Source of the DNA: a phage | Strand: one strand, 5' to 3' | DNA length: 64,000 nt | Sequence record: NC_101837.1 | Part shown: in pieces, positions 56,782 through 63,964 of the stretch | Numbering within the stretch: position 1 is the stretch's first letter | Layout of the letters: every line of letters begins with the position of its first letter | Made by a program: the position numbers and the translations under genes | Notes under the pieces: generated by a model | The model's input: the letters and a program-made list of their open reading frames with translations, nothing else | What the model was told of the DNA's origin: nothing | Database searches by the model: none

Positions 56782-58008
56782 TCAGAAAGGGATCGAGTCA
56801 TCGAACTCATACTGCGCCGGATTCTGATCCATCGGGTCATCTTCCTCGTCATTTACAGGAGGAGCGTCTACAGTGTTTTGCTGTGGAGCTGCTTCCTGTT
56901 TGGCAGCTTGAGGTTCTTGATGGTCAGTGGACCCAGCACCGTTCTTGATCCAATCGTACAACGGCTCAGCCAGATTAGTCAAGACATCTTTCGCTTCTGC
57001 AGTAATTGCCACTGCAAAATCATCAACTTTCGTTTTCTTGTCAATACGGCGACAAGCGTTCAACACCGCATTACCGACACTGGCACCTACTTCATCTTCA
57101 GTTCGGTTGGTGGCTTGAGCATACTCTTTCTTAAGCTCAATGGTGACTACGTGCAGTGTTTTAGCCACGCCCAGTGGGTCGTCTACCTTAAACCCGCGAT
57201 CCAGGATGATCTGCAACGCATTGATGCTATGCCCCGTTTCCACACCGATAGGGTCGTAAGAGGATTTACGCTTGCCACCGGAGCCTTGAGTGCCGTTCTC
57301 TGCCTTAGGGGGATAGGCTTTGAAACCACTGATAATGTTTCCGGTGTCTTTGTCAACAATGGCTGCAACACGACCACCTACCACCAGGTCTTTAAGCTGC
57401 TCATCAGTTACAACCATAGCACCTTCGCCAATCTTGTGGTCATTAACAGTAACCACGTTGCCAACAATCTGAGTCACATCGCCATAGATGCGTAAAACGT
57501 CCTGATTGGCATTCTGCTGAGGTTTCTGCTTCTGGCCTTGTGATTGTGCACCTTGTTGCTGTTTTTGCTGCTGAGTCGCTGCTGGAGCCTCTCCTGCACC
57601 CAGCTTGACCATCTTAGCCAGTGAGCCTTTGTAATAGGTCTTACCGTTATGCTCGTTTGCCTTCAAAGGGATATTTACGATCCATCCCGGCGTTACGGTT
57701 TCCCACTTGTCATCAATTTTAACAGAGACAGAGTCTTGATGACCAGGTTTAAGCAGCTTATCACCCATGCTGATCCAGACTTCTTCACCACCTTGAAGCA
57801 GGTTATCAGAGGAATCCAGTTCAGAAATCAGTAAAGAGATGGTGTGGCTGGACTCAATTTTCTTACCTTGCCACACAGTGGTTTTAATACCTGTTGTAGG
57901 ATCAGCACCTTTGATAGGCTTGATGCTGACGCGTTTAATCATGCCGTGAGCCAGTAAAACAGTTTCACGCGGATTCATCGGGTTAGCGAATTGTTGAATA
58001 ACGCTCAT
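56782..58008 (-). CDS. putative ssDNA-binding protein with SSB-type acidic C-terminal tip
   Basis: Gln-rich linker and terminal EFDDSIPF resembling bacterial SSB DDDIPF tail; next to DNA polymerase block. Confidence 0.45.
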   Translation of the reverse strand: MSVIQQFANPMNPRETVLLAHGMIKRVSIKPIKGADPTTGIKTTVWQGKKIESSHTISLLISELDSSDNLLQGGEEVWISMGDKLLKPGHQDSVSVKIDDKWETVTPGWIVNIPLKANEHNGKTYYKGSLAKMVKLGAGEAPAATQQQKQQQGAQSQGQKQKPQQNANQDVLRIYGDVTQIVGNVVTVNDHKIGEGAMVVTDEQLKDLVVGGRVAAIVDKDTGNIISGFKAYPPKAENGTQGSGGKRKSSYDPIGVETGHSINALQIILDRGFKVDDPLGVAKTLHVVTIELKKEYAQATNRTEDEVGASVGNAVLNACRRIDKKTKVDDFAVAITAEAKDVLTNLAEPLYDWIKNGAGSTDHQEPQAAKQEAAPQQNTVDAPPVNDEEDDPMDQNPAQYEFDDSIPF

Positions 58009-58373: not shown

Positions 58374-58456
58374 TATGGAATCTCCGATTTTATTTGAACA
58401 ACATAGAAGGAGACACTATTTTAGCATCCCCTTCTGCAAATTACAATAGGTATTTG

Positions 58457-58702
58457 TTAGCCAATCACTTCAAAAGTTCCCCAATTCCCGTCCAGCAGGC
58501 AGGTGATCGGATCCCCATCGTCGTCAAAGATTTCAAAGTTTTCAGCATCCAGGATGTGACCCTCGAACACGATACTTTCGTCGCCACCACCAGAAATAAC
58601 AGCGTATTCCTTACCTTGAGTCAAGTTTTGACACCCTTTGCCACCAAAACCTACTTCAACACAACGTACTTTCTGTCCTGCGCGAGCAACTGCTTCAGTC
58701 AT
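58457..58702 (-). CDS. hypothetical protein
   Basis: Tiled ORF. Confidence 0.4.
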   Translation of the reverse strand: MTEAVARAGQKVRCVEVGFGGKGCQNLTQGKEYAVISGGGDESIVFEGHILDAENFEIFDDDGDPITCLLDGNWGTFEVIG

Positions 58703-58719
58703 CTTAAGGTCTCCTGATA

Positions 58720-59040
58720 TTAATCGTCAAGTTCAAAATAGATTTTAACAGCTTCATCAAAGATTGGAATCCCGATGTTGTTGATAAGCTGCCAAACTAC
58801 CATATCTTTACCCGGATCTGGGAGAATGTCAACCTTTCTCCATGCGCTGTATATCCAGTTCGGACCACCTTCTGCACTAACTGGCAGATTTTCACCAGCC
58901 TCCTGCAGATACTTATACAGCAAAAGATATTCTGGATACTCTAGAACACTGTCCTCTGTAGTATATAGCAGTTCACGGTATACTTTTAAGAACCCTGCTG
59001 GGGTAATGTTTTCAGTCTTCATTTGCCGCTTCTCCTGCAT
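58720..59040 (-). CDS. hypothetical protein
   Basis: Tiled ORF. Confidence 0.4.
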   Translation of the reverse strand: MQEKRQMKTENITPAGFLKVYRELLYTTEDSVLEYPEYLLLYKYLQEAGENLPVSAEGGPNWIYSAWRKVDILPDPGKDMVVWQLINNIGIPIFDEAVKIYFELDD

Positions 59041-59404
59041 TCATCAGGTCTGCCATAGCGTCACCTACGAAGAGAACAACCACATCGTTGACAGCGTCAG
59101 CATCATCTTTGTTGACGTTGCTGAATTTAGGACACACAGCAATGATCATATAGACACCGTTACCAACCTGGACTGTCCGTGTGGTGCACATCATGGCGGT
59201 ATTTGTGCCTTCTTTGAAGGCGAAGCCTTGAAGACGCTCCTCTAAAGTGTTACCGGTAGATTTCAGAAGCGCCAGCTCGTCCAAGGCATAGATGATATCT
59301 CCGGAAGTTAGTGTTGCCTTGCCATCAGACACCATAATAACTCCATCAGCACCGTCAAGCTTAGAGGCTTCAAAGATATCAATATCCCAAATATTTTTCA
59401 TCAC
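59012..59404 (-). CDS. hypothetical protein
   Basis: Tiled ORF. Confidence 0.4.
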   Translation of the reverse strand: MMKNIWDIDIFEASKLDGADGVIMVSDGKATLTSGDIIYALDELALLKSTGNTLEERLQGFAFKEGTNTAMMCTTRTVQVGNGVYMIIAVCPKFSNVNKDDADAVNDVVVLFVGDAMADLMNAGEAANED

Positions 59405-59721
59405 GCTTCCTCTTCGTCTAAGGAGTTGAAGATTTCACCGAAGTATTCTAAGACTTCTAGCTCCCGTGTGGTGCAGAAAACACAGTCACCGTTGTCATCC
59501 TCGATAACTGCCTCTTTACCCAGCACATCTACTTCAAGTTTATCGTTCAACAGGACAGCTCCTGTGTAAACTTTGTCGGCTGTGCAGTCCCGAAAAGCAG
59601 AGTCCTTCTCCAGATAGTCTGGCTTAACCTTGGCTTTAATTCGTTGATATTGTTTGGTCATTGCTGTGGTCCCCTTTCGTTTTGATAGGGCCATTATATT
59701 AGGCCCCATCGCTATTGTCAA
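59401..59721 (-). CDS. hypothetical protein, paralog of 59725..59979
   Basis: Shares KP(D/E)..E.D.AF(R/K)DCT and D.V.CT motifs with neighbour. Confidence 0.45.
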   Translation of the reverse strand: MTIAMGPNIMALSKRKGTTAMTKQYQRIKAKVKPDYLEKDSAFRDCTADKVYTGAVLLNDKLEVDVLGKEAVIEDDNGDCVFCTTRELEVLEYFGEIFNSLDEEEA

Positions 59722-59724
59722 GTA

Positions 59725-59979
59725 TTAATGCTCAGGTTTTACAAAAACCACTTCATTAACAGTGCACCAGACAGAGTCTCCTTCATCATCTTTAAAGGTA
59801 AGGCACTGTGCTGAGTTTTCCAGCTCATCAATCTCTTCTTGTGATAAAGGAGCCCCTTCTTCCAGAAGGGCTTTTACCAGAGGGTTCTCACAAAACTCCG
59901 CTTCATAAATTGCACCGATTGTGCAATCTTTAAAAGCTCGGTCATTTTCAACGCATTCTGGCTTCAAAGTAATTTTCAT
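59725..59979 (-). CDS. hypothetical protein, paralog of 59401..59721
   Basis: Tandem duplicate. Confidence 0.45.
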   Translation of the reverse strand: MKITLKPECVENDRAFKDCTIGAIYEAEFCENPLVKALLEEGAPLSQEEIDELENSAQCLTFKDDEGDSVWCTVNEVVFVKPEH

Positions 59980-60055
59980 CTTAGCGGTTTCCTTAGTTAT
60001 TTAAAAATCAACGCTCTGTTTGTGTGAAGCATCTTATATCTAATCTTACTTCTTG

Positions 60056-60454
60056 TCAATGACTATTTTCAATCAGCCACACAGGGTCGAGGTAAATTTG
60101 TTGGCGTGTTGCCCAATGACAAACTTCATTGTACATCTGAACCTCTTTGTCTGTCAATTCACGAATAGGCTCATCTATACCCTCATTTTTGTGGTAATCC
60201 CAGTCGGCATCGATTTCCCACAGCCATGACTTGTTGTCACCACGCTTACGCACACAGAAGTCACCAGGACGGCCTGCCAGTGCATTTAAGAACTCGTTCT
60301 CTGCTCGCTCCTGAAGAATGCTAAGGAGCAAAACGTTGGAGCATGACCGTAAAATATGCTTCAGCTCGCAGTCATCAATCTCAACTTCAATACGTTGTTT
60401 GACTGTGTGGGTACCTTTTACTAACATTCTATCTCCTCTATACAAACTCTGCAA
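60056..60454 (-). CDS. hypothetical protein (132 aa)
   Basis: Tiled ORF. Confidence 0.45.
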   Translation of the reverse strand: MQSLYRGDRMLVKGTHTVKQRIEVEIDDCELKHILRSCSNVLLLSILQERAENEFLNALAGRPGDFCVRKRGDNKSWLWEIDADWDYHKNEGIDEPIRELTDKEVQMYNEVCHWATRQQIYLDPVWLIENSH

Positions 60455-60632
60455 GTGTTGTGTTGTTCACTGCACCGCAGTAAATGGAGTATCCCAGCCC
60501 ATTAGGGTGCAGAAACCACGGCGTGCCGAAATTATCTTTCACGTAGACATCGCCGTTGCTTGTAAAGGGCCAATATTCTTCACCAAGGGTGAAATACCTG
60601 CTCATACCCTCAGCCAGATACTTTACTTTCAT
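60438..60632 (-). CDS. hypothetical protein
   Basis: Tiled ORF. Confidence 0.4.
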   Translation of the reverse strand: MKVKYLAEGMSRYFTLGEEYWPFTSNGDVYVKDNFGTPWFLHPNGLGYSIYCGAVNNTTLAEFV

Positions 60633-60856
60633 AGGTCCTCTTCAACAGCTACAAACTTGGCAAGCAGGGTGGTTCCGTAGATATGATACTCACCGTTTGC
60701 CAGATGGGAGATAAACCAGGCAATCCCTTCCTCGTCTTTAATCATCTTGTTTGCACGAGCTTTATCGTAATAAACCTCGTAGGTCTTTCCTTCTTTAAAG
60801 AATGACAGGTCTGTCATCTTTTCTTCTACAAAAGTAGCTTTAACCAAAGTTGTCAT
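60629..60856 (-). CDS. hypothetical protein
   Basis: ATGA coupling. Confidence 0.4.
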   Translation of the reverse strand: MTTLVKATFVEEKMTDLSFFKEGKTYEVYYDKARANKMIKDEEGIAWFISHLANGEYHIYGTTLLAKFVAVEEDL

Positions 60857-61227
60857 TGATCGGTCTCCTTCTTGTTAAGTCTGAATACTGCAATAATAGC
60901 ATTCCCAAGGTGCAGTGTCAAATCATTTCCAAGATACCACAGCATTCCACGGTCATCTTTGATGAAAGGGTAGCAATCTGGTGCCTTCCAGACATTGTAC
61001 ACTTTCCCAACCTGAAAGAAATCAGGCCCTGTTGGGATTTTAGTGCCTGGCCACACTTGAGATACCTGAACACACTCCACCTGCATAATAACAGGGATAG
61101 TCATGGATGTAAATGTTTTTGTTGGTTCTACTACCATAAAAGTCTCCTCTTTGCTCAACAACACTTCCATGTGTTGATAGTTTACATTAGTGACAATCAC
61201 CCCAATTACGACCACACAGGTATTCAC
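60853..61227 (-). CDS. hypothetical protein
   Basis: Tiled ORF immediately downstream of polymerase. Confidence 0.4.
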   Translation of the reverse strand: MNTCVVVIGVIVTNVNYQHMEVLLSKEETFMVVEPTKTFTSMTIPVIMQVECVQVSQVWPGTKIPTGPDFFQVGKVYNVWKAPDCYPFIKDDRGMLWYLGNDLTLHLGNAIIAVFRLNKKETDQ

Positions 61228-63964
61228 CTGTGATCTGGAACGGGACGCCCATCATTTTAGAAGCTTGCCAGAAGCAATGCACCACCATTTCACCCACAGG
61301 GCTCCAGATAAGTTCAAGCTTTCCGTCATCGTTCAGGATAGGATCGTACACCGTGTTTCCGTCTCTGTCAACCACTTCGTTTCCGTCCTCATCCTTGCGT
61401 GCCTTTTTGTACTTATGACCGTCGAACACATGAAGTTTGGCCTCCTGCTCTGCCTTAAATGCTTCCAGTTCTTCGATTGTGTCGAAGGTGTACACAGTCT
61501 TATACTTCGGTGTGTCAGGGACTTGAAGCTGATATTCGTCATGGTAATAGATAATACGACGAACACCTTCATCGTACCACCCACGCTTCACCATTTGATG
61601 GTGCATGAGTATCCCAACTAAGTCACACAACGATGCGCCGCCATTTTGTTGGTATGCATTAAGTAAAGAGTGTTTAGATCGGGTCCAGATAGCATGACCA
61701 TCAAAAGAGTAGATAAACTTCTTACCCGTTGCTTCCCAGAATTTCTCCAGATCTTCTTTACGCCCCTTAAGACCAGGGTTGGCATCCCAGAGTGCATCGA
61801 TTACCCTTTGTCCCAACTCTGGAGAGATGTCCAGCATATCTGCAACTTTATCTTTTTGTGCCCCATACATAACCCCATACGTGATAGGTTTACCGTCGTT
61901 ACGAGACACCTCTCTACCTGCTACTTTTGTATATGCCTCAGCATTGTTTTGGTGTGCGTCCCCGTTACTTACAACATCGTAATACAGGCCGTTGTCGAAC
62001 TCAAAGGCACCCCAAGCCCCGATAAGCTGCTCTAAGTTGGACCCGTCAATACCGATCTCAAAGTATCCTGGAGGAACACCCCACAGACTACGCATCTCTT
62101 TACCCATAACCACTTTAGGAGATGGTTTAGGCATGTTTGCACAAATACTGTGTTTCTGTCGGGAAGTGTTTGTTAATCCAGAACTTTTAGCAGGAAGCTT
62201 ATGGTCAATCTTCAAACGTGGGTGATTAAGAAGACCAGTATCAACCTTATCCTCCTTGATTGGATCAAGGACCGATCTGCGGTTTCGCAATGATAACCAC
62301 AAGACGATATCTTTAGCCATCTCTCCGTTCAATTTTTCAAGATTCGGGCATAGGTGTCCAAACGTATCTTTCAGTTGCGGAGAAGTAATAAGTGCCCTAG
62401 CTTTTCTACGTATTTTCCCGAATACTTCCTTTTTAATCCTTTCGGAGTTAGGAAAGCTTCGGAACTTGTGCACGGTTGTCTGGAACTTAGCATCAGTTTT
62501 GTTCCAGAAGTTGATAATTAGGTCACAATACTCTGACTCTAAAAGCTCGTCCATATATGCATACACTCGTGCATCAACATCTGCATCAGGTAGAGCTTTC
62601 TTCTTGCTGTCTTTAGTTACATCCTTAGTTCTCCACATTGTCGGAAGCCAACCAGCACTGATCAGGTATCGCTTAATATCGTCCTGATTGCTGATTTTCA
62701 TAGGTATCTTGCAGTCAGGCATTCGCTTCTGCTGTAGATCACTTATTGCCTGATCCATTAGCTCTTTAGGTAAAGGTTGTGGTGTGGAGGTGCCCTTGAT
62801 ATAGCCCCTCAAGAAATCCGCCATCTTGTCAGGGTCTTTACAGCCCATCTCTTCACACCATTTTATCCCCATCTTACTGACATCTCCTGTGGAGGTAAAT
62901 GCTCGCTTAGGAGGAGCTTTGAATTCTAAAGCACTCATGTCCACAGGGTAGCCAAGCTTGTCTTTTAACCATTTCCAACCATTATTGGAGATTGTCCCAT
63001 CCTGGTTAAACGGCTTTTCAGGGAACTTAGGCCGCTGAGACATTGATAACTCTTTTAAAGGAAGTTGTGGTTCAACACGATCAGCGATCTCTTTCATCCA
63101 CGCATCGCAGCGGTCACGTAAAGCAATAGCCCCATCTATGTCGAAATACACACCCTGTCGAGCCTGCAGCTCCATCAGGAAATGCTGCAGCATGCCTCGG
63201 CGTAATGCATTCTTCCAGGTAATCTTCTTGAATCCTTTAGGCTTCTCTTTGGCAGGGTCATACATAAAGTTCTGCATGTCAGATTTGCCGTAGAATACAC
63301 CTTTTGATTCCGCTACCAACTCTTTCCAGAGCAACTCCTGGATGATAACGTCCTCGAACACACGATCCACATATTTCCACAGCGGAAGATCGCGCCAGTC
63401 ATCAATTTGAACTTTCTGGTTACCAAGGGCGTAGCCCCATGCCATAAGGCCGTGAGGACCAACAGGTTGCATTTTCTTAGTAACCGGGTTGAATACAGCG
63501 TCCGGACAACCTTTTGGTAAAGGGCGATCAGGCCACAAGATTCGGCTCATAGCCAACGTATCAAACAGGTTAACCTGGTGGTCGTTGATAGTCCCCATGC
63601 ATTTAGGATCACGGAACATATCAAAATGAATACCGGATAATCTTTCCATTAGCATAAAGTCATAACTGTAGCAGTTATGGCAGTTCAAAGCTGTTGGTGA
63701 CCAGTCAGAATTGCCTGTAAGCCAACCTTCCAACTCCGAAAAATCTGCTATGCGAACTTCAAAATCTTTATAAAGAGTTTTCTTTGCCAGAATGAAGTTC
63801 TTAGCCTTTTCTATATCCTCCTCGGAGTAGTGTGTGCGGTCATTTAGAGGAAGGAACAGCATAAAACGGTTCTTATTCAGCTCTTTAAACAGACCGCAGT
63901 GATAATAAAGATCTGGGTCTTCCAGCAAACCGGATGACTCAAAATCGAAAGACCACATACTCAT
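61187..63964 (-). CDS. family A DNA polymerase with N-terminal 3'-5' exonuclease domain
   Basis: Exo I FDFESSG; motif B KPITYGVMYGAQKDK; motif C YYHDEYQLQV; 925 aa. Confidence 0.85.
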   Translation of the reverse strand: MSMWSFDFESSGLLEDPDLYYHCGLFKELNKNRFMLFLPLNDRTHYSEEDIEKAKNFILAKKTLYKDFEVRIADFSELEGWLTGNSDWSPTALNCHNCYSYDFMLMERLSGIHFDMFRDPKCMGTINDHQVNLFDTLAMSRILWPDRPLPKGCPDAVFNPVTKKMQPVGPHGLMAWGYALGNQKVQIDDWRDLPLWKYVDRVFEDVIIQELLWKELVAESKGVFYGKSDMQNFMYDPAKEKPKGFKKITWKNALRRGMLQHFLMELQARQGVYFDIDGAIALRDRCDAWMKEIADRVEPQLPLKELSMSQRPKFPEKPFNQDGTISNNGWKWLKDKLGYPVDMSALEFKAPPKRAFTSTGDVSKMGIKWCEEMGCKDPDKMADFLRGYIKGTSTPQPLPKELMDQAISDLQQKRMPDCKIPMKISNQDDIKRYLISAGWLPTMWRTKDVTKDSKKKALPDADVDARVYAYMDELLESEYCDLIINFWNKTDAKFQTTVHKFRSFPNSERIKKEVFGKIRRKARALITSPQLKDTFGHLCPNLEKLNGEMAKDIVLWLSLRNRRSVLDPIKEDKVDTGLLNHPRLKIDHKLPAKSSGLTNTSRQKHSICANMPKPSPKVVMGKEMRSLWGVPPGYFEIGIDGSNLEQLIGAWGAFEFDNGLYYDVVSNGDAHQNNAEAYTKVAGREVSRNDGKPITYGVMYGAQKDKVADMLDISPELGQRVIDALWDANPGLKGRKEDLEKFWEATGKKFIYSFDGHAIWTRSKHSLLNAYQQNGGASLCDLVGILMHHQMVKRGWYDEGVRRIIYYHDEYQLQVPDTPKYKTVYTFDTIEELEAFKAEQEAKLHVFDGHKYKKARKDEDGNEVVDRDGNTVYDPILNDDGKLELIWSPVGEMVVHCFWQASKMMGVPFQITGEYLCGRNWGDCH

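Follow-up and report, generated by a model that had tools for sequence, protein, structure and literature searches.

Two small adjacent open reading frames within a 64,000-nucleotide stretch of phage DNA (NC_101837.1; the whole stretch is referred to as the window) had been described, from the letters alone, as tandem paralogs upstream of the DNA polymerase gene, with shared motifs and conserved cysteines that suggested a duplicated small metal-binding domain. This description raises the question of whether both frames are genes, whether they are related to each other and which kind of domain they encode.

Two related genes and their neighbourhood

Both frames of the original prediction exist on the minus strand, at 59401-59721 and 59725-59979, but the start of the left one, a TTG at 59721, had been placed too far upstream. 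Gene B (59725..59979, minus strand) encodes an 84 aa protein, is the orthologue of rV5 gp215 and matches phrog_12544 at 2e-59. Gene A (59401..59661, minus strand) encodes an 86 aa protein from an ATG at 59661, is the orthologue of rV5 gp214 and matches phrog_11936 at 5.4e-55. Three observations together define gene A as 59401-59661, with 86 codons for amino acids. At 59721, the TTG belongs to the -35 hexamer of a sigma70 promoter and does not start the gene; the 60 nt between this TTG and the ATG at 59661, when read as codons, display about equal pN (0.054) and pS (0.041); and in divergent relatives (loci L010 and L011) the A-like gene starts with MKAQRIKAKVK right after the same promoter. Besides, a ribosome-binding site (AAAGGGGA) lies 8 nt ahead of the ATG at 59661, and the annotation of phage Murica uses the equivalent of this start. 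Several records, including that of rV5 itself, extend gp214 upstream into the promoter, with a length of 294-321 nt instead of 261.

More than 100 genomes of Vequintavirus (rV5-like) Escherichia myophages match the 2.9 kb that surround the gene pair at 97-99% identity, and the pair is found in 115 Vequintavirus-type records, at two places per record. In every record inspected gp214 and gp215 are annotated as "hypothetical protein". A clade at about 50% protein identity (L010, L011) keeps the B-then-A order together with the intergenic consensus promoter. Pooled over six Vequintavirus genomes, pN/pS is 0.19 for A and 0.13 for B; A and B are real genes under purifying selection.

Two peculiarities of the database records were observed at this locus. 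Several versions of gene B (P0021-P0027) are frameshifted or truncated at a GAAGAAGGGGC run at about 59850-59866 on the minus strand, within the gene, and phage Alma matches gene B in two pieces at the same run; the broken versions reflect either assembly errors at the G-run or an occasional loss of B. In addition, 16 GenBank records (MG0656xx) that are named 'Campylobacter phage', 15 of them with C. jejuni as host, match positions 58400-61300 of the window, and one of these phages, C12, is 97.4% identical to this E. coli Vequintavirus region. The host labels of these records look doubtful.

The two motifs quoted in the original prediction are present in both proteins. KP(D/E)..E.D.AF(R/K)DCT reads KPDYLEKDSAFRDCT in A and KPECVENDRAFKDCT in B, and GD.V.CT reads GDCVFCT in A and GDSVWCT in B. 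The pairwise alignment that had been proposed as a check, and on whose significance the claim of paralogy was made to depend, is significant: BLASTP aligns A with B at 31% identity over 77 columns (E=1e-9), and the Smith-Waterman score is 95, when compared to 26.9 +/- 5.1 (maximum 60) over 5000 shuffles, with a resulting z of 13.4. The matches are reciprocal at the level of protein families, with A recognising phrog_12544 at 4.5e-5 and B recognising phrog_11936 at 1.1e-6, and each of the two proteins also matches a third family, phrog_17459. A and B are thus homologous and are products of a tandem duplication, as had been supposed for a duplicated small domain.

Every gene from about 56.7 kb to 64 kb is carried on the minus strand, including an intact gene for a family-A DNA polymerase (61187-63964, 925 aa), so named in GenBank records, whose Pfam DNA_pol_A match is weak (9e-8). 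The order of transcription is the polymerase gene first, then four small genes, then gene B and gene A. Transcription of the minus strand proceeds towards lower coordinates, which puts the pair some 1.2 kb downstream of the polymerase gene and makes its earlier placement upstream wrong in terms of transcription. The rV5 annotation (NC_011041, 126431-129382, locus L004) splits the polymerase into gp223 and gp220, and gp221 and gp222 lie between these two pieces or overlap them, whereas the polymerase gene of the window is intact.

Directly after the polymerase gene lies a second tandem set of small paralogs, made of three minus-strand genes (60853-61137, 60629-60856 and 60438-60632; phrog_12922, 12623 and 12802), which share the motifs GKxY and IKDxxGxxW(F/Y) and have pairwise z-scores of 7.6 and 9.7. 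We considered these three genes as members of the A/B family and rejected them (pairwise z at most 2.7, hhalign probability 3.5%); the 81-aa gene at 58457-58702 likewise gave a z of at most 2.7 against A and B. Further along the same strand, the gene at 56782-58008 encodes a 408-aa protein (phrog_4477, "unknown function") with a long Q-rich linker and the C-terminus ...YEFDDSIPF. This end is similar to the C-terminal tip of E. coli SSB, DDDIPF, and from its sequence the 408-aa protein may be a phage single-stranded-DNA-binding protein or a mimic directed at the SSB interactome.

Promoters and an intergenic stem-loop

The promoter of gene A (59693..59721, minus strand) is TTGACA-N17-TATAAT, which matches the sigma70 consensus at 12/12 positions; its hexamers are kept in six Vequintavirus genomes and in the divergent loci L010 and L011, while the spacer differs. 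Gene B is preceded by TTGACA-N17-TAAGAT (60031..60059, minus strand, 10/12), and the rV5 annotation places a sigma70-type promoter, P220, at this site. On both strands of the whole window we counted 20 sigma70 sites at 11/12 or better. Four are perfect 12/12 sites (24043+, 50078-, 54029- and 59721-), when compared to about 0.02 expected by chance in a 64-kb window according to a rough estimate. Such a number of strong sites is in line with dependence of the phage on host RNA polymerase and with many strong early promoters. A and B would be made early by host RNA polymerase, a timing that we infer from promoter sequence.

At 59684..59710 on the minus strand, a stem-loop with a 9-bp GC-rich stem (GAUGGGGCC...GGCCCUAUC) encloses the -10 hexamer of the gene A promoter in its loop. 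The stem displays compensatory changes, being GGGCC/GGCCC in the window, GGACC/GGTCC in rV5 and CGGGG/CCCCG in L010 and L011. With these changes the stem is 9-12 bp long, and three lineages gave fold z-scores between -2.5 and -3.8. We observed no T-run after the stem-loop. The complete hairpin would be present only in read-through transcripts from gene B, and an all-GC stem is found at the A promoter only among the 20 strong promoters of the window, two others having AT-rich stems of 5-6 bp. Each gene has its own strong host-type (sigma70) promoter, and the stem-loop over the A promoter would part two transcription units.

Predicted fold and wider phage family

AlphaFold2 models built on family alignments reached a pLDDT of 82.6 and a pTM of 0.69 for A, and 86.6 and 0.64 for B. 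DSSP assigns strands 5-12, 31-37, 50-54, 60-64 and 68-78 to the A model, and strands 2-5, 25-30, 59-63, 69-73 and 77-80 to the B model. Both models display the five antiparallel strands and the RT-like, n-Src-like and distal loops of SH3-like small beta-barrels, and A and B are accordingly modelled as five-stranded barrels of this class. The core common to them runs from strand 1 through a short helix, the (R/K)DCT loop, strands 2 and 3 and the DDxGD hairpin to strands 4 and 5. The B model has a two-helix insertion at residues 33-56 (helices 33-40 and 47-56) between strands 2 and 3, where the A model has a short low-confidence loop; the C-terminus of A is an acidic/aromatic tail. A and B are strongly acidic, with net charges of -10.5 and -13.4, respectively, and a pI of 4.2-4.3.

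In Foldseek searches of the PDB, SH3-type structures dominate the best 50 of 362-406 matches; the B. subtilis protein YorP (2heq) is the top neighbour of A and ranks third for B, and SH3, PWWP/Tudor and PetP structures are also found. All of these matches are statistically weak, with a best E of 0.095 and TM of about 0.43-0.47. The structural neighbours of A and B in BFVD are uncharacterised small phage proteins.

In order to define the wider family we ran profile searches against a collection of 5.8 billion proteins, which returned about 28 and 27 matches, and an exhaustive HMM search of 1.84 billion cluster representatives, which returned about 19. The relatives fall into four groups, namely the A lineage, the B lineage, a single-copy lineage made of Justusliebigvirus (phi92-like) phages and Salmonella phage UAB_1, and scattered metagenomic phage proteins of 67-81 aa. 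Every homologue found lies on a phage or phage-like contig; those whose surroundings could be seen stand within runs of short co-directional ORFs, with a gene for a DnaB-like helicase, a DNA polymerase A or a 5'-3' exonuclease, or a weak SAM-lyase-like gene, nearby. Three proteins (P0032, P0034 and P0041) hold two copies of the domain in one polypeptide. One candidate of 972 aa (P0035) was discarded as a repeat-protein false positive.

Two motifs are the signature of the family, [AL][FL](R/K)DC(T)xGxxY in the loop before strand 2 and FxDDxGDxV in the beta3-beta4 hairpin. Over 18 domains D25, Y32, D55 and G58 (A numbering) are invariant, D56 and D59 are nearly so, and R or K at position 24 is usual. 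Every relative can be assigned to PHROG 11936, 12544, 17459 or 23195, all four being labelled "unknown function". The relatives from the two large searches included no Pfam or NCBIfam match, no name and no informative fusion, and neither single proteins nor an 18-member profile gave anything above noise against Pfam, NCBIfam and PDB sequences; DUF7127 (E=0.066) and residues 482-555 of a cyclic-nucleotide-gated cation channel (E=0.43) were set aside as noise-level matches. On profile matches and modelled fold, the four PHROGs make up one phage-only family of a predicted SH3-like domain that has no Pfam entry.

The history of the pair can be proposed along these lines. An old tandem duplication of a small (about 65-75 residues), phage-restricted, acidic SH3-like beta-barrel domain would have given rise to A and B, which then diverged. 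The cysteine of the xCT motif in strand 4 is best taken as a derived residue common to A and B, which groups the two apart from the Justusliebigvirus proteins and the distant homologues; the duplication would hence postdate the split from the other lineages. B would afterwards have gained its two-helix insertion, bracketed by two further cysteines, while A would have retained the short loop and carries its C-terminal tail.

Function, cysteines and known systems

The overall reading that we lean towards, and hold to be somewhat probable, is that A and B are early-made acidic SH3-like protein-binding modules derived from the old tandem duplication. The functional part of this reading is drawn from genomic context and from the modelled fold class. 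The two proteins would act as small protein-binding modules through their conserved acidic hairpin and the R-D-C...Y surface, the partner would be a host or a phage protein, and the role could lie in host takeover, counter-defence or replication. A and B may act pairwise or as dimers, given that in other phages a single polypeptide contains two of these barrels; such independent fusions suggest that the domain functions in twos. Pfam, NCBIfam, PHROGs, PDB sequences and the large protein collections offered no functional annotation, domain fusion or characterised homologue, and literature searches on the rV5 gp214 and gp215 proteins, their PHROGs, YorP and the transcriptomics of Vequintavirus brought up nothing of relevance.

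A specific sub-case of this explanation is that A and B are acidic DNA mimics of the anti-restriction type that block a host DNA-binding defence or nucleoid protein, with Ocr, ArdA and the SH3-like CarS as analogues. Such mimicry is supported by the net charges of the two proteins (-10.5 and -13.4, at a length of some 85 residues), by conserved residues that are mostly Asp and by the strong sigma70 promoter of each gene, as well as by a distant homologue whose gene immediately follows a weak SAM-lyase-like gene in what resembles a podophage early region. However, neither fold searches of the PDB nor sequence searches gave any similarity to known DNA mimics, the charge of some family members is close to neutral (P0040, -0.3; P0038, -2.4), and the pair lies inside the replication module and not at the genome end that enters first. 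We therefore regard this sub-case as rather unlikely. We would give about the same low weight to the idea that A and B belong to a hitherto undescribed family, restricted to phages, of acidic SH3-like proteins that are made early and act in pairs in host takeover or counter-defence, with B further stabilised by a lineage-specific four-cysteine cluster; such proteins might be DNA or SSB-tail mimics, and the cluster of B would lie at the base of the helical insertion.

The conserved cysteines had originally been read as ligands of a duplicated small metal-binding (zinc) domain. Two cysteines are indeed common to A and B. The one of the DC motif (A26/B19) is present in 10/10 proteins of the A lineage, 21/21 of the B lineage, 2/2 of the Justusliebigvirus proteins and 9/13 distant domains, the remaining 4/13 having Thr. 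The one of the xCT motif (A63/B72) is again present in 10/10 and 21/21 proteins of the two lineages, but in 0/2 Justusliebigvirus proteins, which have Phe, and in 0/13 distant domains; outside A and B its place is taken by F, A, S, K or I. The B lineage keeps two more, B30 in 21/21 and B59 in 20/21 proteins, which bracket the helical insertion. Neither is Cys in A or in the Justusliebigvirus proteins, and among the distant domains B59 alone has a counterpart (Cys in 2/13). The third cysteine of A, A60, is C, W, Y or D among close A orthologues and is not Cys in B, the Justusliebigvirus proteins or the distant domains.

What favours a metal site, besides the two common cysteines, is mostly found in B, whose lineage keeps Cys 19, 30, 59 and 72 in 20-21 of 21 proteins, even where identity falls to about 50%. 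A purely structural role would not call for so many cysteines. Divergent A-like proteins also have four, at partly different positions. Against it, A has only two conserved cysteines (26 and 63) and no His, and neither A nor B has a CxxC or CxxH knuckle. The DC cysteine gives way to Thr in some distant domains and the xCT cysteine is confined to A and B, the modelled fold is an SH3-like barrel, and no zinc-ribbon or zinc-finger structure is found among the best 50 of 362-406 Foldseek matches in the PDB. Thus, neither of the two hallmarks of a small zinc domain, four family-wide Cys/His ligands and a zinc-ribbon or zinc-finger fold, is seen. In B the hairpin register of the model (strands 59-63 and 69-73) would pair C72 with L60 and so place it on the opposite sheet face from C59, which argues against a single four-cysteine site. 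The occupancy of the cysteines across lineages shows that the domain is not defined by a metal site, and exchanges of Cys for Thr, Ala or Phe are typical of small buried positions. A duplicated zinc domain is on these grounds quite unlikely, and the label of metal-binding domain is not supported for the domain as a whole, although the observation of two cysteines common to A and B stands. The cysteines probably serve mainly as core and packing residues rather than as a family-wide metal site, with a B-specific cysteine cluster or metal site as a minority possibility.

SH3-like barrels often bind RNA or DNA, and A and B could by this token be small nucleic-acid-binding barrels (Sm-, Tudor- or KOW-like) that act on replication or transcription intermediates beside the polymerase. 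The fold matches include PWWP, Tudor and the KOW region of ribosomal S4e, and the genes sit in the replication module; all fold matches are weak, however, and the conserved surface motifs are acidic, not basic or aromatic. This option is very unlikely because of the strong negative charge of both proteins. Finally, chance similarity or non-coding ORFs, for which nothing but the small ORF size speaks, can be dismissed as exceedingly improbable given the z of 13.4, with 0/5000 shuffles at the observed score, the reciprocal PHROG matches, the pN/pS of 0.13-0.19 and the confident fold predictions.

Since the shared cysteines are not a conserved metal site, A and B are an ordinary pair of phage accessory genes. 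The genes were already on record as hypothetical proteins in more than 100 sequenced phages, and a fold of this class is often seen in small phage proteins. What is new is the paralogy of A and B, the union of four PHROGs under defined motifs, the corrected start of A and the intergenic promoter with its stem-loop. Several GenBank records of the rV5 gp214 orthologue are over-extended into the gene's own promoter and can be corrected, and four families of "unknown function" can be joined as one predicted SH3-like domain family. As strongly promoted acidic proteins of rV5-like coliphages that are therapeutic candidates, A and B are reasonable targets in screens for anti-defence or host-takeover functions. 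The practical value is modest, and the pair by itself raises no new biological question.

Among known systems, the closest are the rV5 genes themselves, gp214 (ORF219) and gp215 (ORF220), which are orthologues of A and B (96.5% and 93-98% identical), agree with them in gene order and promoter, and show no substantive difference. The Justusliebigvirus protein inny_152 (phrog_17459), its metagenomic relatives and phrog_23195 share the A/B domain with its motifs RDCTxGKVY and FxDDVGDxV (profile matches of 1e-6 to 1e-40). In contrast to A and B, inny_152 is single-copy, lies in another neighbourhood, adjoining a gene for a TerC-like membrane protein, and is devoid of the xCT cysteine, and some of these relatives have two domains in one ORF. 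YorP, which like A and B is a small phage-borne protein (B. subtilis SPbeta prophage, 2heq), shares the predicted five-stranded barrel topology, as do SH3, PWWP/Tudor and PetP structures. A and B have no sequence relationship to these proteins, the YorP family (PF09629) being unmatched at the gathering threshold in Pfam scans of A, B and 18 family members. The structural matches have Foldseek E values of 0.095-0.7 and TM scores of 0.43-0.47, and they imply no residues for binding proline peptides or methyl-lysine.

As for the intergenic element, T4-type phages are described as having promoter-early stem-loop (PeSL) cassettes between their ORFans (Arbiol et al. 2010, PMC2839356), which recur as sequence-similar copies across hyperplastic regions and mediate recombination and termination. 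The element at 59684-59710 resembles a cassette of this type in that a consensus sigma70 promoter and an adjacent stable stem-loop, with a G-run and a C-run forming its stem, are found between small ORFan genes. It differs from the T4-type cassettes in its occurrence in Vequintavirus and in a stem that encloses the -10 hexamer.
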